Shown: positions 7,888-19,460 of the stretch, one piece after another
How the letters are laid out: each line of letters begins with the position of its first letter
Numbering within the stretch: position 1 is the stretch's first letter
Source: a bacterium
Lineage (GTDB): Bacteria; UBA8248
Assembly: GCA_965219955.1 (NCBI GenBank)
Contig: OZ244799.1
Span: forward strand, 2,624,001 to 2,688,000
Direction: 5' to 3'
DNA: 64,000 nt
The notes under the pieces: generated by a model
The model's input: only the letters and a program-made list of their open reading frames with translations
What the model was told of the DNA's origin: nothing
Database searches by the model: none
Made by a program: the position numbers and the translations under genes

Positions 7888-8079
7888 ATGACTGTGGGCA
7901 TCCTTTACCGGACGGTAATCGCGTTGTTGAGCATGGTGCTCGGCTTTATGTTATTCGGAGTGGCGAATCAATTCTCACGAAAACCCACGCGTCCCCTGTA
8001 CACGAACCCGCCTGATTCGCCAAACCATTCGCCGATTTACACGGCAATTCGGGAGCGACTTCAGAGACAGTTCTGCTGA
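7888..8079 (+). CDS. Small putative membrane protein
   Basis: One hydrophobic segment VIALLSMVLGFMLFGV; no family recognised. Confidence 0.3.
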   Translation: MTVGILYRTVIALLSMVLGFMLFGVANQFSRKPTRPLYTNPPDSPNHSPIYTAIRERLQRQFC

Positions 8080-8636
8080 TTTGCTCGATTTCCTCTTCTC
8101 GCCCTCTCCTCTCCATATCGAGGATGATGGCCTTTGCGGTGAACATGGCGGAGGGCAACGGGTGAATCTCCGCTTCGATGCCGGGCTTTCTGAGGTAACC
8201 ACATTAGCTCGTGAGGTGATGGAGACCGTCGCAGACTTAACTGATACCACTTCGCTGGATAGGAGCAGTTCGGGGATCACAGTGTTAAATTCGATCACCG
8301 GAGTTCTCACCGACAATACGGACAAGAGCTACACGTATCAAGGAAACGCGAACGGCGCATATATGGCGGACGGAAAGGCCAGTTATTTCAAGGTGTACGT
8401 TTCGCTAACGGCCGAGTTCTAGGATCTAGGCAAAACGGGTTCGGGGACCATCGGGGGCAACGTCACGAAAATAACGGCTGGCGGGAAGCCCATTGACGGA
8501 AGCATTGAATTGCAGGAACAGGTTCTAACTGATAACCTGAGTGTCCTTTTTACAAACGTAGCCGCGGGCGTAGTTGAAGGAAACGCCGACAACGACGCCT
8601 AGAAGGGCTAGTTTTTCGGAATGAGATATGACAAAA

Positions 8637-9980
8637 GAGAGTGTCCGAAGTCTTGTGTAAGTAAGGGTCGAGGGTTCACACTTCACCAGGAGGAGGACCT
8701 TTGATGACGAGACTGAGACCTGAGCTATTGGACGAGTTGCTGTCCGGCTACGAGAAGCCGGAAGACCTGTTGGGCGAGGACGGGCTGTTCAAGCAGCTCA
8801 AGGAGGCTCTTGTGGAGCGCGCGCTGGGCGCGGAGTTGAGCGAGCACCTCGGCTACGAGAAGGGAGACCCAGCCGGACGAGGTAGTGGCAACAGCCGCAA
8901 CGGGCATTCCGGCAAGACGGTTCTGAGCGATGATGGCGAGTTGGACCTGGCGGTTCCCCGGGACCGCAACGGGACGTTCGAGCCGGCGATCGTGCCCAAG
9001 GGGGAGCGGCGCCTCGAGGGTTTCGACGAGCGCATCGTGTCGCTGTACGCGCGCGGGATGAGCGTGCGCGAGATCCGGGGCCACCTCGAGGAGTTGTACG
9101 GGGTATCGGTATCGCCGGACCTGATCAGCCGGGTGACCGACGCCGTGCTAGAGGAGGTGCGGGAGTGGCAGAACCGGCCCCTGGACCCTGTTTATCCGGT
9201 CGTGTTCTTCGACGCGCTGCGGGTGAAGATCCGCGACGAGGGCCTGGTTCGGAACAAGGCGGTCTACCTCGCCCTGGCGATTACCTCCGAGGGCGACAAG
9301 GAGGTGCTGGGGCTTTGGATCGAGCAGACCGAGGGGGCGAAGTTCTGGCTCAAGGTGATGAACGAGCTCCAGGCCCGGGGCCTGCAGGACATTCTGGTCG
9401 CGGTGGTGGACGGGCTCGCAGGCTTTCCCGACGCCATCGGCACGGTATTCCCGCGCACCGCGGTCCAGACCTGCATCGTCCATCTGATACGCAATTCGAT
9501 GTCGTTCGTCGCCTGGAAGGACCGCCGGAAGGTCATGCCCGATCTCAAGGCGGTCTACCGGGCCGAGACGCTCGAAGCCGCGGCGGCCAGGCTCGATGAG
9601 TTCGAAGCCCGCTGGGGGGAGCGCTACCCGGCGGTGGCTCCCGCCTGGCGTCGCGCCTGGGAGCATGTGGCGCCGATGTTCGCCTTCCCGCCGGCCATCC
9701 GGAAGATGATCTATACGACCAACGCCCTGGAGAGCCTGCATCGGTCGTTGCGCAAGATCATCAAGACCCGGGGAAGCTTTCCCAGCGACGAGGCGGCGAC
9801 GAAGTTGCTGTTCCTGGCGATACGCAACGCCGGAGTCCGTTGGCGCCGCCCAGTTGACTGGACCGCCGCGAAGGGGCAATTTGCCATTCTGTTCGAGGAT
9901 CGCTTTCCTGGCTCAGCTAGCTGAGCCAGGAAAGCCCAAAGACCCGAGACCGTGGCTTACACAGATAATCGGACATACCC
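8637..9980 (+). mobile_element. IS256-family element, intact copy 1 (1344 bp)
   Basis: IRs GAGAGTGTCCGAAG../..CGGACATACCC; 8-bp TSD TGACAAAA (8629-8636, 9981-9988). Confidence 0.95.
8701..9924 (+). CDS. IS256 family transposase
   Basis: VPRDRNGTFEP, VFFDAL, VVDGL, QTCIVHL, IYTTNALES motifs. Confidence 0.96.
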   Translation: MMTRLRPELLDELLSGYEKPEDLLGEDGLFKQLKEALVERALGAELSEHLGYEKGDPAGRGSGNSRNGHSGKTVLSDDGELDLAVPRDRNGTFEPAIVPKGERRLEGFDERIVSLYARGMSVREIRGHLEELYGVSVSPDLISRVTDAVLEEVREWQNRPLDPVYPVVFFDALRVKIRDEGLVRNKAVYLALAITSEGDKEVLGLWIEQTEGAKFWLKVMNELQARGLQDILVAVVDGLAGFPDAIGTVFPRTAVQTCIVHLIRNSMSFVAWKDRRKVMPDLKAVYRAETLEAAAARLDEFEARWGERYPAVAPAWRRAWEHVAPMFAFPPAIRKMIYTTNALESLHRSLRKIIKTRGSFPSDEAATKLLFLAIRNAGVRWRRPVDWTAAKGQFAILFEDRFPGSAS

Positions 9981-10673
9981 TGACAAAAAAGTTGAGGCCC
10001 CATGGATTACGGTACAAGGCTTTGTAGATGGATACACAAGCTATTTAATTGTACGCACTTCCCGGTTCGGTTGCGGGGTCGTTTTACGTCAACAAGCTGA
10101 CCGCGTCCGGAGGAGGCGTTGTCTTCATCGGGGCGTTCGGGGCGCACAGATAACAGGGCAGTACACCTATAAGGAGAGCAAATTAATAAAGGGGATTGCC
10201 CGTTGGTTGCTTCCCTCGTGCTAGAGCAAACTGTATCGTTCCTTGCTATGAGTTTGAGTCCTCGATCAGGTAGCGGGAACAATGGGCAGCCCCTGCTTGC
10301 GTTTCAGGCAAGCTGGCCGACACCCTGCCGCAGCTGGCACTTTACCTTGTGGATTGTGTCGCAGCAATTCCCGTCTTTCGCCAGCCCTGTAAGGGGTGTC
10401 GGCCTTTTTTTTTGCCCGACCCAGACGCGCTCGCAACGAAAAATGTTCTTCAACCCGGACAGCCCTTCAGAAGCGGCATTGATAACCCCCATCAGACCAC
10501 GACCGAATATATATTGCGTCAGGCGAAGCCCTGGAGAGGAAATGGTATGGACGCCTTCCCGGCAACCGAGTGCCGCGGTTCGAGAGGGTCGACATGGATC
10601 CTCGATGATCTGTGGCACCCTGAGAAGCTCAAGGGGAAGACATAGTGTCTTCCCAGGCCAACCGGAGGGTCCA

Positions 10674-11702
10674 ATGATGAAGAATGGCAGAACGGTCGTC
10701 GGTGTGGATACGGCGAAAAGCGTGTTCCAGTTGTACTGGGTCGAGGTGGAGACGGGAAAAAGGATGTCCCTGAAGCTGACGCGGGCGAGGTTCCTCGAGC
10801 ACTTCGCCAATCGCGCTCCGTGCCTGATCGCGATGGAGGCGTACGGCGGCTCGCAGCACTGGGCGCGTCGTCTGCGGAAACTGGGCCACGAGGCGAGGTT
10901 GCTTCCGGCGAAGATGGTGAGGCCCTTCGTTGCCGGCAACAAGAATGATTCGCACGACGCGCGCGTGATCTGGACGGCGGTGCAACAGCCTGGGGTAAAG
11001 GCGGTTGCGATCAAGAGCGAGGAACAGCAGGCCGTCCTGGCGCTGCACCGCATGCGCCAGCAGCTGGTGAAGTTCCGCACGGCCCAGATCAACGGCTTGC
11101 GCGGCCTGTTGACCGAATACGGAGAGGTCATGCCACAAGGCCGGGCGGGCATGCGGCGAGACATGGTCGCAGCCCTCGGCCGGATATCGGAGCGACTGCC
11201 GACGATGGTCGTGGACGCCCTGCGAGAGCAATGGGCGCGCGTGGCCCGGCTCGACGAGGAGGTTCGCGGTATCGAGCGCCGCCTGAAGCTGTGGCATCAA
11301 GACAACGCCGAGAGCCGCAGGGTGGCGGAGATCCCCGGTGTCGGTTTGCCGGGCGCGACCGCTTTGGTGGCCGCGATGGGTGATCCCGCCGCGTTCAGTT
11401 CCGGTCGGGAGTTCGCCGCCTAGCTGGGGCTGACGCCCCGCCATGTCGGGACCGGCGGAAAGGTGCGCGTGCTCGGAATCTCCAAGCGGGGCGACAGGTA
11501 CCTGCGCACCTTGCTGATACACGGCGCCCGCGCCGCAATCGTCCACGGCAAGGCGCCGCGTGAATGGGTGTTGCGCCTGGCCGGACGGCGGCCCCCGAAC
11601 GTGGTCGTCGTCGCCCTGGCGAACAAGATGGCGCGCACGATCCGGGCCCTGCTGGCCCATGACCGGGAATACCAACGAAACTTTGTCGGCCATCCTGCGT
11701 AA
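10674..11702 (+). pseudogene. IS110/IS1111 recombinase with premature TAG
   Basis: VGVDTAK, MEA, KND..DA (DEDD) motifs; REFAA*LGLTP where W is expected (TAG 11421-11423); frame continues ISKRGDRYLR..VALANK. Confidence 0.9.
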
Positions 11703-11965
11703 GTCCGGATGGCAAAAGATAACACGAAACGATGAACGGAGGTGGCACGCCGAAGGATTGCGCAAGGCAGGATAAAGTGTGATGGCTAACAGGTCAGACC
11801 GCGGCCCGCAAAGTCTGTATGGCATCGAAGGCGAAAAGCCTTGAAGAGGAAATGAGGCGCGGGTCGGCTGATTCCATCAGGGCCGGCAGGCAAGAGCACC
11901 TGCACCGAAAGGCCGAATATAAAGCTGCAACCTGACAGTCAAAAGCACCGAATCCGCCTTTGCCA
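11703..11965 (+). ncRNA. Predicted seekRNA/bridge-type guide RNA region of the IS1111 element
   Basis: Position downstream of the recombinase as in IS1111; two predicted internal loops with matches to target and donor (see findings); exact ends unknown. Confidence 0.7.
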
Positions 11966-13110
11966 CCGGGAAGGCGTCCATATAAAGGATGCCATGACCT
12001 GAAACCTCTCGTAGCGACCCGGCGGGTTCGACCCCCGCCCGGCAAAGGCCGAGCCGGCCAGCCGGAAGCGAGTCTTGCATGGCGTGCGGCAACGCGCGTC
12101 GTGAAGCGTAGACAGCAGGTGACGAAGCGGCGGGGTAAGCCTCGAAATCGGTCAATCGACGACGCCTTCATTGTTAATCGTGTGGGGGCAGCACCGGAAG
12201 CGCCGCTATCGGCGAGGCGCAACGGGTTGTCCGGGGTCGTGGACCGGCGCAAAGTCACGGGACGGGTCGCCAGGGAACCTGGGAGATCCTGCACTTGCCC
12301 GTGGGCAAGGATGCTGGGAAGGGGATGCCAGCATGCAAATCCAGAACCCGGCCCGTCGCCGGGCCTGTACGGCGGCGGGAGCGCTATATGGCGGACACGA
12401 ACCCCGCAGGCGCCCGCGGAGCCGACCGGCGAAAACAATAAGCCGAAGGACATGCGGGGGCAGGAAGTCGTAGCGCCCTGATAGTACCGCTGAGGGCGGG
12501 GAACCGTGGCCATCGGGACCCGCTGGAGGGAAGCGGGGCGTCATCTGTACAGAGCCACTGATGGGAAACGTTGGAGGAAACCCTGAGTTCCACGAACACG
12601 TACACGAAACAGCAGTGGATAGCCGAACAGGTGAGGGAGCATCCGGAACGGGTGTTCACGTCCCTGCACCACCTCATCGACGGCGAGTGGATGCGCGAAG
12701 CGTATCGCCGCACGCGCAAGGATGGGGCGAGGGGCATCGACGGCGTGAGTGCTGCCGACTACGAGAAGGACCTGGAGGCGAATCTTGACGACCTCCTGAG
12801 CCGGATGAAGTCGGGCCGCTACTTTGCGCCGCCGGTGCGCCGGCGCTACATCCCGAAGGCGGACGGCACGAAACGACCGCTCGGCATTCCGACGTTCGAA
12901 GACAAGGTGGCGCAACGGGCAATCCTGATGCTGCTGGAGCCGATTTACGAGACGGACTTTTTGACGTGCTCGTACGGCTTCCGGCCCGGACGGTCGGCTC
13001 ACGATGCCCTGGACGCACTTCGCACGGGCATCATGGAGCAGCGCCAACGATGGGTGATAGACGCGGATTTGAAAGCGTACTTCGACTCAATCCCGCACAC
13101 CCACCTGCGG

Positions 13111-14889
13111 TCATTCCTCGACCTGCGGATTAAGGACGGCGTCGTAAGGCGCATGATTGACAAATGGCTGAAAGCGGGGGTGCTCGAAGAGGGCACCGTT
13201 CACAGGCCGGTCGCCGGTACTCCTCAAGGTGGGGTCATGACACCCTGAACGCAAAAGGCAACTCTGCTCTCCGGCGCCGCCGTCGTCGGGTTCCGATGGG
13301 ATCGGACTGCCACCGGACGCCCCCGGGATCGGGATGGAATGGCGAATCGTGATCTTCTCCTCACTGACCAGCACCTCCTTGACGAGAAGCCGGACAAGGC
13401 GCTGTTGTTCGCCGGTATCCAGGCTATGGGCGGAGGAGCGAAGCCGCGCCAGGAACCCGCTCAGCGTGTCGGCGAGCCGGAGGTAGGTTTCCCGATCCTT
13501 GACCTGCTCGACAACGGACTGCAGTTCACGATGAAGAGCCTGTTCCTGACGGCGTAGCCCGGGCGTTCTCTCGCGCAGTTCGTCGATGGTGATCAGCTCC
13601 TCCTGATAGGCATTGACCAGGCGGTCGATGCTCTTTCGTGTTCTGATCAACCGGCGCCGCAAGTCGGTCTCGCGCTGCCGGTTGGGGTCGGAGTCGCGGG
13701 CCGCCTCCAGACGCCGATCGATTTCGGCGCCGATCAGCGCCGGATCCTCAAGCAGGCGAACGACTTCGCTCCAGACAACGTCGTCAAGCAGATCCTGGCG
13801 CACCGGCCGATTGTCGCATAGCGGCCCGTTGAGATGCCGCCAGGCGTCGGAGCCCAGGCAGCGGTAATAGTAAATCGTGCGCGCGCTCGTCCGGGTCGAC
13901 GTGCGATACAGGGAATAGCCGCATTTTCGGCACGAGACCAGCCCCTGCACCACGCTGGGCGTCCTGGTCCGGCGCCGCCCGAGGGCCTTGTTCATCTCCA
14001 GCCGCTCTTCGGCCAGGGCAAAGGTCTCCTCGCTGACGACCGCCGGCACCGGAATCTCGATCCATTCCTCGCGCGGTTTCTCGTGACCGCCGGTGGTGGC
14101 GCCGGCCACGCCGCCGCGCAACCGCAAGGGGCGGGTCACGGTTTTTCGCGGCATCTGGCGGGTCTTGCCGAAGCACGCCTTGCCCTTGTACGCCGGGTTG
14201 CGCAGCATCGCCCACACGGTCGAACGCTCCCAGCGTCCGCGCCCGGAGGACGTGGGTACCGCCCGCTCGTTGAGCTTGCGGGTGATCTCGCCAATGCTCA
14301 TGTGGTCATGAGTATAGTAGCGATAGACTTCGCGAACCACCGATGCCTGAGGTTCGAGCACCTCATAGTAGGCATCGCTCTCGGAAGTTTTCTTGTGGTA
14401 GCGGTAGCCATAAGGCGCGCCTCCGAGAACCGCAACTTCACCACACTGCGCACGATGACGCTTGCCGCGACGGGAACGTTCCAGTATCTGTGCGCGCTCG
14501 TATTCCGCGATCATCCCCTGGAACTGGACGAGGAGGTTGTCTTCCGGGGTTTCCATCGACGGCGCGTTCACAAACACGGTCTCAACGCCATGGCGGGCCA
14601 ACTCTTCGATAATCAGCACCTGGTGGGCGTAGCGGCGGCTCAAACGGTCCGGGGCATGGACCACCAATGTATCGAAGCGCCCTTCCGCGGCGAGGTCCCT
14701 GATCCGCTCCAGCCCCGGGCGCTCGAGAACAGCGCCGCTGCAGCCGTCATCCTCGACGAGCATCTCCGGCGCGACGCTGTAGCCGTGGTTCCTGGCGTAT
14801 TCGACCAGCGCCTCGGTCTGGCTCGCGATCGTGCTGCTCTCCCTCTGCTGCTCGCCCGAGACCCGCGCATAAAGGGCTGCGACTTTCAT
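13111..14889 (-). CDS. Large serine recombinase (resolvase + recombinase + zinc ribbon + coiled coil)
   Basis: YARVS catalytic Ser, RPGL, DRLSR, PYGY, NPAYKG, CRKCG..YYRC; ORF reads through the element boundary. Confidence 0.95.
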   Translation of the reverse strand: MKVAALYARVSGEQQRESSTIASQTEALVEYARNHGYSVAPEMLVEDDGCSGAVLERPGLERIRDLAAEGRFDTLVVHAPDRLSRRYAHQVLIIEELARHGVETVFVNAPSMETPEDNLLVQFQGMIAEYERAQILERSRRGKRHRAQCGEVAVLGGAPYGYRYHKKTSESDAYYEVLEPQASVVREVYRYYTHDHMSIGEITRKLNERAVPTSSGRGRWERSTVWAMLRNPAYKGKACFGKTRQMPRKTVTRPLRLRGGVAGATTGGHEKPREEWIEIPVPAVVSEETFALAEERLEMNKALGRRRTRTPSVVQGLVSCRKCGYSLYRTSTRTSARTIYYYRCLGSDAWRHLNGPLCDNRPVRQDLLDDVVWSEVVRLLEDPALIGAEIDRRLEAARDSDPNRQRETDLRRRLIRTRKSIDRLVNAYQEELITIDELRERTPGLRRQEQALHRELQSVVEQVKDRETYLRLADTLSGFLARLRSSAHSLDTGEQQRLVRLLVKEVLVSEEKITIRHSIPIPGASGGSPIPSEPDDGGAGEQSCLLRSGCHDPTLRSTGDRPVNGALFEHPRFQPFVNHAPYDAVLNPQVEE

Positions 14890-15043
14890 TCTCGTCTCCT
14901 ATCTCTCGTCTTCGGGCAGGGATTTTGCAGGCTTGATCGGGAACCAGTATCTCGTAGGCATTCTGGAGCCTGGCTGCGAACAGGCGATCGAAACTGTAAT
15001 CAAGTTCAACGCCGGGCAGCGAACCCGGGCGGCGCGCAGCCAT
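14747..15043 (-). CDS. Small accessory protein of the recombinase element (possible directionality factor)
   Basis: Starts immediately after the upstream gene stop and overlaps the recombinase start; function inferred from position only. Confidence 0.45.
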   Translation of the reverse strand: MAARRPGSLPGVELDYSFDRLFAARLQNAYEILVPDQACKIPARRREIGDENESRSPLCAGLGRAAEGEQHDREPDRGAGRIRQEPRLQRRAGDARRG

Positions 15044-15044
15044 G

Positions 15045-15365
15045 TCAATCCACGTCCGGGAGAAAGCGCCTCAGTGCCCGTGCGACGACGTCCCCGATGG
15101 CCTGGCCGCTGATCCTGGCGTGCGTACGCAGGGCTTGCGCCAACGCGCCCGGAATCTTGATGGTCATGGGAATCCGGGATTCGACCGGCTCGGCCGGACG
15201 GTCCATGGCCAGCGCCTGCTGAACGTAGCGGTAGGACTGCCGCTGCGATACGCCGAAACGCTGCGATAGCCGCACTACAGCCTCGTTCGTCGTGACGCCC
15301 TGTGCGAGCAGCGAGTAGGCGGCGTTGATCCGTTCGGCTTTCTGGGACTTCGATGATCGCGTCAT
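15045..15365 (-). CDS. Small DNA-binding protein (HTH-like plus RHH-like)
   Basis: LSQRFGVSQRQSYRYV HTH-like; MTIKIPGAL..L...A..SG..IGDVVARAL RHH-like. Confidence 0.7.
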   Translation of the reverse strand: MTRSSKSQKAERINAAYSLLAQGVTTNEAVVRLSQRFGVSQRQSYRYVQQALAMDRPAEPVESRIPMTIKIPGALAQALRTHARISGQAIGDVVARALRRFLPDVD

Positions 15366-15373
15366 TTGACATA

Positions 15374-15402
15374 ATAATATTACCTCTTGAGACGAAGATC
15401 AA
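15374..15402 (-). promoter_or_regulatory. Sigma70-like promoter of the recombinase element
   Basis: TTGATC-N17-TATTAT on minus strand, 8 nt before ATG 15365 (near-leaderless). Confidence 0.55.
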
Positions 15403-18116
15403 GTACCGAGCGATCCCGCCACGCCACAATCTGGCGCTCAAACTGGAAGTTGCCTTTTGCGTTCGGGGTGTCATCTCGCCGATGCTCTCGAACATCTTCC
15501 TGCACCATGTGCTGGACAAGTGGTTCGAGGAATTGGCGAAGCCGCGTCTTAACGGACGGTGCCAACTGGTGCGATACGCCGATGACTTTGTCATCGCCTT
15601 CGAAGACCGCCACAGCGGCAAGCGATTGCTTGACGTGCTGGGCAAACGTCTGGGCCGATACGGACTCACGCTCCATGAGGCCAAGACGCGCTATGTGGAC
15701 TTCCGCCGGAGGCGTCCCTACGGGCGTCACTGGATGGCGTCGGCCACGACGTTCGACTTCCTCGGCTTCACCCACGTCTGGGGGCGGTCGATGCAAGGCA
15801 AGGACGTCGTTCGCCAAATCACGGCGAAAGGCCGCTTCGCCCGCGCGCTGAAATCGGTGCACGAGTGGTGCAAGAGACATCGGCACCTGCCGGTCAAGGC
15901 GCAGCATGACTATCTCGTCCGGGTGATACGAGGCCACTGCGCATATTACGGTCTGACAGGGAACGGCAAGCGTCTTCGGTGGTTCCGCTACCAAGTGGCT
16001 CGCACGTGGCGGAAGTGGCTTGCGCGCCGCAGCCGCCTGCGCCGGATGAACTGGGACCGGATGAACGCGCTTCTCTTGCGATACCCCCTTCCATTTGTCT
16101 CGTACGTGCGTTCTCGGCAAAGCTCCTTGAGCGAACCTGTCAGGTGAGGAACCGAGTGCGTCAGTCGCGCACGCTCGGCTCTGTGGGGGGCGGGGCGCAG
16201 CAATGCCCCCGCCTACCCGTAACCATTCGGCGGCAGGGTGATGGTTTGCGCGTAGCTCATCGCGGATAATCGAAGAGATTCCCCTGAAGGGCTGGTAACA
16301 CGATCCGGCATGTGGTAATCATGTCGGCATGAAGATCTGCACGGAAGCTGTTCAGGCGGAAGTTTCGTTGGCCGAGAGGCCGGATGAGCGATGGCCTCAT
16401 TCCCCCGGGTTGCCCGCAACCGCAGAGGCCTACTGGCGTTCGCTGTACGAGCGAGAACGTGCGCGCGCGGAGTCTGCGGAGGCGCGCTGTGAGGAGTTGC
16501 GGCTCAAGGAGGTGGATTCGCGTGCGCGGGCGGGTTCGCTGAAGTGGTGTCTCGACAACTGCCGGATGAAGCTAGCCGCGAGGGTCGGGAAGTTGAAGGA
16601 AGTCCGCCGCGCGGCGAAGAAGGACGTCGAGGCGCTCGAGGCGGAAGTGGCTCGTCTGGAGAAGCAGCTTCGCAAAGCGGGAGTGGAGCCGGGCAAGCCC
16701 GGCCCGATCGAGTCGCTGCGCAAGGAAGCCGCCCGGCTGCGCAAGGAGGTCACCCGGTTGAACAAGGCTCTCTCGGGCGCGCTGCCTGAGAAGGAGGCCG
16801 CGCGGCTGCGCCGGGCCGTGGAGAAGCGGGAGAAGACGCTTGAGTCACTGCGCAAGGAGCTTGAGGGGCGGGAGAAGGATGTGGCCCGGCTGGAGGATCA
16901 ACTGGCCTGGGAGAAGATGGAGACGGCGGATCACAAGAAGACGATTCAGTATCGTGAAGAGGAGCTAATCCGGCTCTACGGGAAGTTGCGGGAATTGCGC
17001 GACGAGTTGCGTGTCTCGCTCCGGGCCGCGGGCAGAGTGAAGGAGGGGCTGAAGGAGCGGCTGTTGCGCGCGAAGGAGGCGTTGCGCACGAGGTCGTCTC
17101 GTCGGGACGCGGAACTTCGCAAGGCCCTGGGGAGGTCGCGGCGCCAGAAGACGGCGATCGGGTCGCTGTCGAGGGAGAACGGGCGGTTGCGCCGTGCGCT
17201 GCGCAAGTCGGAGGCCCGCCGTGCGCGTCTGGAGGCCGAGCTCGCGAAGCTTCGCGCGACCGGAGCGGTGCTGGCGAGGAGGCTGTTCGGGCGCAGGAGC
17301 GAGCGGCAGGAGAGGCCGCGCACCGGGCGAAGGCGCGGCGGACAGCCCGGCGCCCGGGGCCATGGCCGCACCCCGCGGCCCGCGCTCGATGAGAGGACGG
17401 AAGTCCGCAACCCGCCGGCCGGTGCGCGCGTCTGCGCCGCTTGCGGGAAGCCCTACGCGGCGAACGGCGCCCGTGTGTCGCGCATCGTCGAGATCGAAGT
17501 CTCGGCGTACAGGCGCGTCATCCACCGTACGAGGTGGCGCCGGGGGTGCGGTTGCGCGTCCTCGCCCACCGAGGTGTCGGCGCCGCCCGCGCCGCGCCTG
17601 TTCGCGGGCACGGCTTACGGGACGAGCGTGTGGGCGCGCCTGCTGTTCGAACGCTACGCCTGCTTCCGCCCGCTCAACCGGGTCGCCGCGTGGTTGTCGG
17701 ACCAGGGGCTTCCGATCTCGGCGGGGACGCTGGGCGACAGCGCGCACCGGTTCATGCCGCTGTTCGAACCGCTGAACGGGGCGATCCTCGCCCGCCAGAA
17801 CGAGGCGTCGGTGCGCCACGGGGACGAAACGACCTGGCGCGTTCAGTCGCTTCGCGAGCAAGGACGCTCGAACCGCGCCTGGCTGTGGGCCTCGCTGAGC
17901 GCAGACTCCGTCTACTTCCACGTCGACCCCTCGCGGTCTGCTGAGGTCGCGATGAAGCTCTTCGGCGCGGCCGGCTCCCATACGGTACTCGTCTGCGACC
18001 GCTACAGCGCCTACAAGAAGCTGGCGCGCAGGCCCGAGAGGAACTGGCCGCCCTGCCGGCGCAGGCGCGCGAGGGCAAGGCGCTTCGCTCGCTGCTGAAC
18101 CACCGCGAGGGGCTGA

Positions 18117-19460
18117 GGGTATGTCCGATTATCTGTGTAAGCCACGGTCTCGGGTCTTTGGGCTTTCCTGGCTCAGCTAGCTGAGCCAGGAAAGCGATCC
18201 TCGAACAGAATGGCAAATTGCCCCTTCGCGGCGGTCCAGTCAACTGGGCGGCGCCAACGGACTCCGGCGTTGCGTATCGCCAGGAACAGCAACTTCGTCG
18301 CCGCCTCGTCGCTGGGAAAGCTTCCCCGGGTCTTGATGATCTTGCGCAACGACCGATGCAGGCTCTCCAGGGCGTTGGTCGTATAGATCATCTTCCGGAT
18401 GGCCGGCGGGAAGGCGAACATCGGCGCCACATGCTCCCAGGCGCGACGCCAGGCGGGAGCCACCGCCGGGTAGCGCTCCCCCCAGCGGGCTTCGAACTCA
18501 TCGAGCCTGGCCGCCGCGGCTTCGAGCGTCTCGGCCCGGTAGACCGCCTTGAGATCGGGCATGACCTTCCGGCGGTCCTTCCAGGCGACGAACGACATCG
18601 AATTGCGTATCAGATGGACGATGCAGGTCTGGACCGCGGTGCGCGGGAATACCGTGCCGATGGCGTCGGGAAAGCCTGCGAGCCCGTCCACCACCGCGAC
18701 CAGAATGTCCTGCAGGCCCCGGGCCTGGAGCTCGTTCATCACCTTGAGCCAGAACTTCGCCCCCTCGGTCTGCTCGATCCAAAGCCCCAGCACCTCCTTG
18801 TCGCCCTCGGAGGTAATCGCCAGGGCGAGGTAGACCGCCTTGTTCCGAACCAGGCCCTCGTCGCGGATCTTCACCCGCAGCGCGTCGAAGAACACGACCG
18901 GATAAACAGGGTCCAGGGGCCGGTTCTGCCACTCCCGCACCTCCTCTAGCACGGCGTCGGTCACCCGGCTGATCAGGTCCGGCGATACCGATACCCCGTA
19001 CAACTCCTCGAGGTGGCCCCGGATCTCGCGCACGCTCATCCCGCGCGCGTACAGCGACACGATGCGCTCGTCGAAACCCTCGAGGCGCCGCTCCCCCTTG
19101 GGCACGATCGCCGGCTCGAACGTCCCGTTGCGGTCCCGGGGAACCGCCAGGTCCAACTCGCCATCATCGCTCAGAACCGTCTTGCCGGAATGCCCGTTGC
19201 GGCTGTTGCCACTACCTCGTCCGGCTGGGTCTCCCTTCTCGTAGCCGAGGTGCTCGCTCAACTCCGCGCCCAGCGCGCGCTCCACAAGAGCCTCCTTGAG
19301 CTGCTTGAACAGCCCGTCCTCGCCCAACAGGTCTTCCGGCTTCTCGTAGCCGGACAGCAACTCGTCCAATAGCTCAGGTCTCAGTCTCGTCATCAAAGGT
19401 CCTCCTCCTGGTGAAGTGTGAACCCTCGACCCTTACTTACACAAGACTTCGGACACTCTC
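18117..19460 (-). mobile_element. IS256-family element, intact copy 2 (1344 bp)
   Basis: Same ends and identical protein as 8637-9980; 8-bp TSD GGGGCTGA (18109-18116, 19461-19468). Confidence 0.95.
18173..19396 (-). CDS. IS256 family transposase
   Basis: Identical translation to 8701-9924. Confidence 0.96.
   Translation of the reverse strand: MMTRLRPELLDELLSGYEKPEDLLGEDGLFKQLKEALVERALGAELSEHLGYEKGDPAGRGSGNSRNGHSGKTVLSDDGELDLAVPRDRNGTFEPAIVPKGERRLEGFDERIVSLYARGMSVREIRGHLEELYGVSVSPDLISRVTDAVLEEVREWQNRPLDPVYPVVFFDALRVKIRDEGLVRNKAVYLALAITSEGDKEVLGLWIEQTEGAKFWLKVMNELQARGLQDILVAVVDGLAGFPDAIGTVFPRTAVQTCIVHLIRNSMSFVAWKDRRKVMPDLKAVYRAETLEAAAARLDEFEARWGERYPAVAPAWRRAWEHVAPMFAFPPAIRKMIYTTNALESLHRSLRKIIKTRGSFPSDEAATKLLFLAIRNAGVRWRRPVDWTAAKGQFAILFEDRFPGSAS

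Follow-up and report, generated by a model that had tools for sequence, protein, structure and literature searches.

Insertion sequences (IS) of the IS1111 family, within the IS110 superfamily, are characterised in the main text of PMC11187229 by a DEDD transposase of 330-350 amino acids with a GL-P----S/TG motif, by subterminal inverted repeats and by a long non-coding region downstream of tnp; the repeats measure 7-17 bp according to the main text of PMC11208160. In the latter, bridge RNAs are predicted in the right end for 93.0% of IS1111 elements; they pair over 8-14 nt, and their donor site is often multi-loop. In the former, the seekRNAs of the IS1111 family carry the top-strand match 5' of the bottom-strand match, the reverse of the IS110 types. 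Here we analyse a 64,000-nucleotide stretch of a bacterial genome (UBA8248; assembly GCA_965219955.1, contig OZ244799.1, positions 2,624,001 to 2,688,000 of the forward strand), hereafter the window, in which positions 10542-11984 are a real IS1111-family element lodged in a group II intron. The reading we favour, with a probability of roughly 85%, is that the right non-coding end of this element encodes a seekRNA/bridge RNA and that a circular form was inserted by the DEDD recombinase at an intron site matched by the guides.

Among the described elements, ISEc11, ISPa11, ISKpn4 and ISPst6 (PMC11187229, main text) have the same transposase type, subterminal repeats, downstream non-coding region and junction promoter (the last predicted here), ISEc11 sharing with the window element even its length of 1443 bp. 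Unlike these four, the window element has a different target, is a pseudogene copy and has an RNA predicted from sequence. The bridge RNA of IS621 (PMC11208160, main text) resembles the window RNA in having a target and a donor loop, each reading left and right halves on opposite strands, and both elements have a core dinucleotide common to donor and target; in contrast to IS621, the window RNA lies in the right and not the left end, its guide order is reversed, the core is AA or GA and not CT, the right guide leaves the core uncovered, and target and element may differ in the second core base. The guide order is that of the IS1111 seekRNAs (PMC11187229, main text), and the predicted RNA fits the description of IS1111 bridge RNAs given above. 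ISBcen4-like and other annotated IS110-family plasmid transposases show 62-67% amino acid identity over 94-100% of the protein. By analogy with ISEc11, ISPa11, ISKpn4 and IS621, the RNA would be made, would be bound by the transposase and would direct strand exchange. The mechanism is already known, and only the target is unusual.

The element and the RNA predicted in its right end

The element comprises the following features.

10540..10541, plus strand: left AA, the copy of the core that belongs to the element itself (core concordance 41/42).
10542..11984, plus strand: IS1111-type insertion sequence, 1443 bp, its ends placed by family alignment and by empty sites.
10546..10562, plus strand: left subterminal inverted repeat TATGGACGCCTTCCCGG, 17 bp, the exact reverse complement of 11966-11982 and kept in relatives.
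10674..11702, plus strand: transposase gene, 342 codons, a pseudogene with an in-frame TAG (11421-11423) at Trp250.
11703..11984, plus strand: right non-coding end, with a predicted structured RNA core at about 11790-11934; 70-84% nucleotide identity over about 250 nt in 78/80 relatives.
11802..11866, plus strand: predicted target-binding stem-loop (helices 2-4, 99.3-100% paired, 7 pairs changed on both sides), with outer stems 11802-11809/11859-11866 and 11813-11816/11855-11858 and inner hairpin 11829-11832/11838-11841.
11819..11826, plus strand: right-target guide ATGGCATC, 5' in the loop and reverse-complementary to GATGCCAT at 11988-11995.
11845..11854, plus strand: left-target guide AGAGG with core AA and ATG, 3' in the loop and with the same sequence as the left junction at 10535-10544.
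11867..11928, plus strand: predicted donor-binding stem-loop (helices 5-7), with outer stem 11867-11870/11925-11928 and inner stems 11881-11884/11911-11914 and 11886-11890/11899-11903.
11960..11965, plus strand: -35 hexamer TTGCCA of the predicted circle-junction promoter, whose -10 TAAAAT is formed only on joined ends.
11966..11982, plus strand: right subterminal inverted repeat, 17 bp, a 17/17 match to 10546-10562.

The two sides of the target loop match the two flanks of the element. The left-guide identity extends over 10 nt, AGAGGAAATG, reaching into the left end of the IS, and among 2000 mononucleotide shuffles of the element's right end the 8-nt right match arose in 31, the 10-nt left match in 10 and both together in none. 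The same correspondence was followed through 80 related loci (67-91% protein identity), of which those with one end missing (L053, L055, L058, L068, L074, L077 and L082) were dropped and those with too short a flank (L072 on the left, L076 on the right) left out; the covariation set comprises 72 elements including that of the window, 65 unique insertions and 41 distinct guide pairs. Compared as reverse complement with the right flank, the 5' loop segment has a mean longest match of 6.85 to its own flank versus 3.78 to non-own flanks, and the flank-specific part of the 3' segment one of 4.71 versus 3.46 to the left flank; the observed sum was reached by 0 of 5000 permutations on the right and 0 of 5000 on the left. 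At the window locus, the five right-guide positions that vary in the family (GCATC) and the left AGAGG all match the intron. Within the loop the top-strand match lies 5' of the bottom-strand match, and the core is included in the left guide and in the donor segment, and in the right guide only of some relatives (L016 and L036, for example).

A second site for the guides was not found on either strand of the 4.28-Mb genome by means of two typed patterns only (AGAGGAA, 0-2 nt, GATGCCAT; or GAGGAA, 0-3 nt, ATGCCAT). The best other near-match, GCGGAGGAGGATGCCATGG, has 2 mismatches in 17 and is a real, unoccupied gene start. At about position 4067956 of the own genome (G000:C1), the real gene start GCGGAGGAGGATGCCATGGCT.., with a full right-guide and a partial left-guide match, is unoccupied.

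The donor loop carries CCAT (11874-11877) and ATATAAA (11917-11923), segments matching the joined ends of a circle, ..CCATATA-AA-ATGG.. The C/T position of the donor motif ATA[C/T]A[A/G]A agrees with that of the right end, CCATA[C/T]A, in 42/42 distinct elements; the match of CCAT to the left-end ATGG is uninformative because it is nearly invariant. The core, AA or GA, is concordant among donor loop, left guide and left junction in 41 of these 42. At the right junction its second base can be A, G, T or C, apparently taken from the target. A core shifted by one base and a core of 3 nt were both rejected: the empty site of the GA-core relative L036 has a single GA between the flanks, and the donor loop of GA-core elements reads ATATAGA. 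When the ends of the window element are joined in silico they form TTGCCA-17-TAAAAT, and 38/39 distinct in-silico junctions combine a TTGnnn with a hexamer like [TC]A[AG]AAT that spans the junction, at a distance of 16-17 nt. No circle-junction contig was found among the contigs of four runs.

The left end of the relatives mostly aligns over 25-49 nt only. Aligned over the right end, the relatives have stems that are constant or change in step, the variable parts being two short loop segments and two positions of the second loop. A seven-helix structure of 34 pairs has 98.0% of its cells paired over 36 distinct sequences, against 29-41% when the partners are slid by 1-3 columns, and its covariation score was reached by 0/500 shuffles. 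Eight pairs are changed on both sides versus a shuffled mean of 5.2 (9/500 shuffles reach 8), and two-sided changes affect 58 cells versus a shuffled mean of 17.1 (0/500 shuffles). The minimum free energy (MFE) fold of the window sequence alone yields the outer stem and the inner hairpin AAGGC-GAAAA-GCCTT, with modest z-scores of -2.16 and -1.42. No curated Rfam family corresponds to the right end, the intron being the only match within 8000-16000 at E <=1. Contigs of the RNA library X13, a metatranscriptome possibly containing DNA, cover 11568-12049 and, being contigs in which DNA is possible, say nothing firm on the transcription of the right end or on the ends of the RNA.

The element itself is bounded by AA on either side. 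Its terminal extensions outside the subterminal repeats are 4 nt (left) and 2 nt (right) long, and its non-coding ends 132 nt (left) and 282 nt (right, 11703-11984), the longer one lying downstream of tnp. The transposase matches PF01548 (DEDD_Tnp_IS110) over residues 9-149 (E 1.1e-11), PF02371 over residues 215-293 and the NCBIfam model NF033542, 'IS110 family RNA-guided transposase', with 296.7 bits (cut-off 140); 3' of the stop the translation contains GLTPRHVGTG, which fits the GL-P----S/TG motif. Every sequence-level feature of the IS1111 family that was tested, namely the DEDD domain, PF02371 with its motif, the protein length, the inverted repeats and the long downstream non-coding region, was found. 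At the position of the TAG, tblastn alignments of relatives have W in 81/85 and F in 4/85, so that a Trp-to-stop change has made the window copy a pseudogene; in contigs of runs X5, X6 and X13 base 11422 is G, giving TGG and an intact Trp codon. The one-contig genome holds a single full copy. Its other matches to the element, a 122-nt stretch of 70-71% identity in 8 places and one match of 36 nt, are unrelated IS110-family sequence; the former belongs to a second IS110-family element with about 8 copies (L002-L009).

An initial annotation of this stretch had already placed ATGGCATC at 11819-11826, AGAGGAA at 11845-11851 and 10535-10541, the CCAT and ATATAAA of the donor loop and the TAG where we find them. 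Its IS1111-type assignment agrees with the three protein models and the 17-bp subterminal repeats, its outer stem and AAGGC-GAAAA-GCCTT hairpin with both the MFE fold and the covariation in the family, and its target- and donor-matching loop segments with the permutations and the donor agreement; covariation of the non-coding end with the flanks across homologues, which it had named as a check, has the loops following the flanks on each side. The junction TTGCCA-N17-TAAAAT that it had predicted does form in silico, with similar hexamers at nearly all the other junctions.

The empty site in the host intron

The following features surround the element.

10513..10539, plus strand: host intron 5' end and left target, starting ATTGCG/TTGCG and ending GGAGAGG, continuous with 11986 onward in 21 intact introns.
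11985..11987, plus strand: right core copy and one extra base (AAG here, AG in a contig of run X6); empty sites have a single A.
11988..13238, plus strand: host intron continued, with the right target GATGCCAT, the RNA of domains I-IV and the first half of the reverse transcriptase (RT) open reading frame (ORF); RF02005, RVT_1.

The group II intron D1-D4 model RF02005 matches at 12029-12246 with 127.2 bits and E 1.2e-36 (gathering score 49; Rfam), and the RT frame at 12571-13248 matches RVT_1, which is present in both halves of the split ORF; no Rfam match to intron domains V/VI at gathering score was found in 15000-19000. Among the 51 genomes of the class that were searched, the intron occurs in 10, the own genome counted, in close copies 87-96% identical, and the window intron (its 11988-13238 part) is 94-97% identical to intact copies. 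The 5' end of the intron is uninterrupted at 21 distinct places, from 9 other genomes of the class, and a paralogue, L012, has the same arrangement as the 5' end of the window intron. The intact ends read ATTGCGCCAGGC[G/T]AAGCCCTGGAGAGGAGGATGCCATGACCTGAAACC in 11/21, GGACGCCAT in 7, GGATGAGAT in one and GGAGAGGAAAGGACGCCAT in two fragments from genome G028; at the site itself there is a single A in 19 (GGAGAGG-A-GGA[T/C]G), AAA in 2 and AA in none. These uninterrupted ends place the IS about 27 nt into the intron and give the empty site as GGAGAGG-AG-GATGCCAT. The initial annotation was right in setting the target in the 5' part of the intron, the domain I region; its reconstructed target, CTGGAGAGG-AA-GGATGCCAT, is one base too long.

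The empty form recurs in other material. A contig of run X5 joins 10539 straight to 11986, loose contig ends in runs X6 and X13 read ..CTGGAGAGG before 11986, and the single-A form is found in contigs of all three runs; one metagenome locus obtained with a 20-nt right-flank query (L095) is an empty, diverged intron copy, GGAGATGAGGATGCC. In run X6, the IS-intron junction has one base fewer at 11984 and reads CCATATA-AG-GATGCCAT, the product expected from the consensus site.

We propose that the DEDD recombinase with its RNA would insert the circular form at GGAGAGG-AG-GATGCCAT, the CCAU and AUAUAAA of the donor loop matching the joined ends. The target sequence owes its conservation to its position in a helix region of domain I, close to the 5' end of a multi-copy group II intron found in the genus, and it also resembles the region from Shine-Dalgarno sequence to ATG, the usual landing place of this IS clade. 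The window copy of the IS is now dead (Trp250 to stop), and so is the host intron, split both by the IS and by a serine-recombinase element in its RT gene.

Several points weigh against this proposal. With the transposase gene interrupted, activity is unreadable from the window copy. The right-target guide of the window does not cover the core, and the right junction (11984-11986) is one A longer than the consensus empty site predicts, the extra A being common to the window and to contigs of runs X1, X5 and X13 and absent in X6. The target loop of one relic, L130, to which we return below, shows no match to its own flank (about 3/8 by eye). Finally, no sigma-70-like promoter was found inside 10400-12100, and the guide RNA and its ends are predicted rather than directly evidenced.

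Some features of the intron copies deserve mention in their own right. Two intron fragments of G028 (L119 and L121), reading GGAGAGGAAAGGACGCCAT with GGAAAGG at the site, have two A above the consensus, which may be a footprint or a mere variant; no match to the IS was found in G028. The window intron (10513-10518) and all 21 homologous introns begin with (A)TTGCG. The usual group II intron start is GTGYG. Upstream of the intron copies the exon is a homing site resembling ATCACCCCACGACCGAACGGTT; it is conserved, and degenerate at the window copy.

Gene starts, specialisation and the choice of target

How the element came to lie in an intron is a separate question from whether it is guided by RNA. 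The explanation that fares best, and to which we give even odds, is that the intron insertion was incidental: the guides of the clade combine a left half resembling a Shine-Dalgarno sequence with a right half CAT(G) and therefore land at translation starts, and the intron sequence GGAGAGGAGGATGCCATG imitates such a site. Of the 65 unique insertions, 39 have a start codon 3-9 nt downstream (ATG for 38 of them) that opens a same-strand ORF of at least 60 codons, a criterion that random positions meet in 2997 of 13000 cases (23%), and 38/65 left flanks end in GGAG, GAGG or AGGA, like a Shine-Dalgarno sequence. The constant loop letters of the clade, ..AT[G/C] and GGAG/GAGG-AA-ATG, fit the same Shine-Dalgarno/ATG pattern; the best near-match in the genome, as noted, is a real and empty gene start, and the ATG of the intron runs on into ACC TGA. 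An incidental hit is less easily reconciled with the better fit of the guide to the intron site than to any gene start of the genome, and with the recurrence of the same junction in several metagenomes.

Some observations concern the landing sites of the clade at large. In the clade (L015-L094) the constant guide letters encode the Shine-Dalgarno/ATG frame and about five letters pick the gene. A relative with at least 9 copies (L022-L030, L032 and L037, from one Rhodospirillales metagenome-assembled genome and a relative) lies in a repeated palindrome, ..CCCCCTTTGGGG-AA-GAGGGATGCGGAGG.., a target resembling repetitive extragenic palindromes (REP-like). REP-like targets are known for other IS110 elements. 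Next to the right end of the element, L054 and L032 have part of a second right non-coding end, which starts at the left-guide AAATGAGGCG in L054 and in the donor loop in L032; the guide gene may have targeted itself, or part of it may have been duplicated in tandem.

Alternatively, the element might be an intron specialist, its guide selected for the conserved domain I of an intron family that offers many safe landing pads, and itself a parasite of a retroelement; we consider this unlikely. In its favour, besides the match of all five variable right-guide positions and of AGAGG to the intron, the exact 17-nt site is present in 11/21 intact copies and one base off in 7 more, and a genome may hold several intron copies (9 matches in G014, 7 in G028, for example). 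Runs of three other studies contain junctions of the IS with the intron, 95-97% identical and with the Trp codon intact, and none of the differences listed for these runs falls between 11775 and 11956; run X5 has such junctions beside empty intron copies, the exon upstream in its left-junction contig differs from that of the window, and the two G028 fragments with GGAAAGG are a possible footprint. The matching variable guide positions, the conservation of the site in a multi-copy intron and the junctions from the three further studies speak for a real association with the intron.

On the other side, the own genome has one copy of the IS and a near-cognate site that is an ordinary gene start, and the only occupied intron 5' end is that of the window (L096), the other 21 places in the 51 class genomes, together with L095, being uninterrupted. 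An intron RT (tblastn, E 1e-5) or intron 5' part within 3 kb was found for 0/80 relatives. The other runs may hold an orthologous insertion in related strains, and the differing exon in X5 comes from a k=31 contig, possibly chimeric over a 28-nt shared segment. The X5 exon was accordingly set aside as proof of a second independent insertion, since assembly at k=31 may jump from one copy to another within the 28 nt of intron. In the genus, the closest relatives, those of G031 (L127 = L015), G027 and G026, have some 36-50 nt of flank in common with one another at a non-intron site, and sequence homologous to that site lies upstream of a paralogous intron in the own genome. The specialisation on a mobile ribozyme that the initial annotation proposed is thus not borne out by the single insertion in the genome, by the surroundings of the relatives or by the target of the nearest ones.

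The relic L130 (in G026) bears on a further point of that annotation, for which close homologues with the same loops at unrelated targets would count as a refutation. Truncated at its 5' side, L130 sits at the L127-type site and has a target loop one base from that of the window (TATGGCAACGA), which brings it close to such a case, yet it is a truncated mosaic: its right end is window-like through the target loop (89/94 and 70/75 identical) and L127-like from the donor loop on (78/85 and 29/32 identical). This mosaic may result from an exchange of guide modules between resident copies.

A more elaborate scenario, more doubtful again than simple specialisation, would have a lineage of the Shine-Dalgarno/ATG-homing clade re-aimed through five loop letters at a constrained helix of the multi-copy intron, and so turned into an RNA-guided retroelement parasite that repeatedly enters intron copies (the window versus X5), sometimes leaves them (GGAAAGG in G028) and has loops that move by recombination (L130). 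As a target the group II intron is unusual and possibly also recurrent.

Very improbable, finally, is the notion that the matches between loops and flanks are due to chance, or that the right end is a mere protein-binding terminus without RNA, for although the matches in the single sequence span no more than 8 and 10 nt and the z-scores of the window fold are modest, this reading is opposed by the permutations on each side, by the 0/2000 shuffles with both matches, by the donor-loop covariation in 42/42 elements, by compensatory changes in 8 pairs and by the 58 two-sided cells against 17.1 in shuffles.

The surrounding nest and related elements

At this locus at least four mobile elements lie nested together; besides the IS and the intron described above, they include the following.

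8701-9924: Mutator/IS256-family transposase gene.
13239-15466: serine-recombinase element, 2228 bp, within the RT frame, with terminal inverted repeats of about 23 bp, ACACCC[T/C]GAACGCAAAAGGCAAC.
16329-18098: IS66-like frame, 3' of the RT remnant.

The sole gene of the 2228-bp element encodes a 592-amino-acid large serine recombinase (13111-14889, minus strand), and the element is single-copy in its own genome. The same RT site is occupied in the opposite orientation in genome G014 (L107), and part of the element is also present in G017 (L100); the intact intron copies L102 and L099 are free of it.

IS4321 and IS5075 are reportedly found in the inverted repeats of the Tn21 family, and IS1111-attC elements in integron attC sites. 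ISEc21 inserts into IS3-family transposase genes (PMC11187229, main text). Like all of these, the window element has a preferred site conserved inside another mobile element, the host here being a group II intron. As to precedents for such a host, the word 'intron' is absent from the texts of PMC11187229 and PMC11208160, the supplements of which may list some, and no such case was found among the titles searched.

For the biology of the family, the 41 distinct guide/target pairs constitute a clean natural example of seekRNA loops re-aimed on a fixed scaffold, and with them the register of guides, core and ends is fixed for the clade. The group II intron is added to the mobile elements in which RNA-guided insertion sequences land. 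The constant loop letters suggest, moreover, that in one clade part of the guide is hard-wired to the Shine-Dalgarno/ATG frame, which bears both on how such elements find sites in new hosts and on the off-target rules for engineered bridge recombinases.

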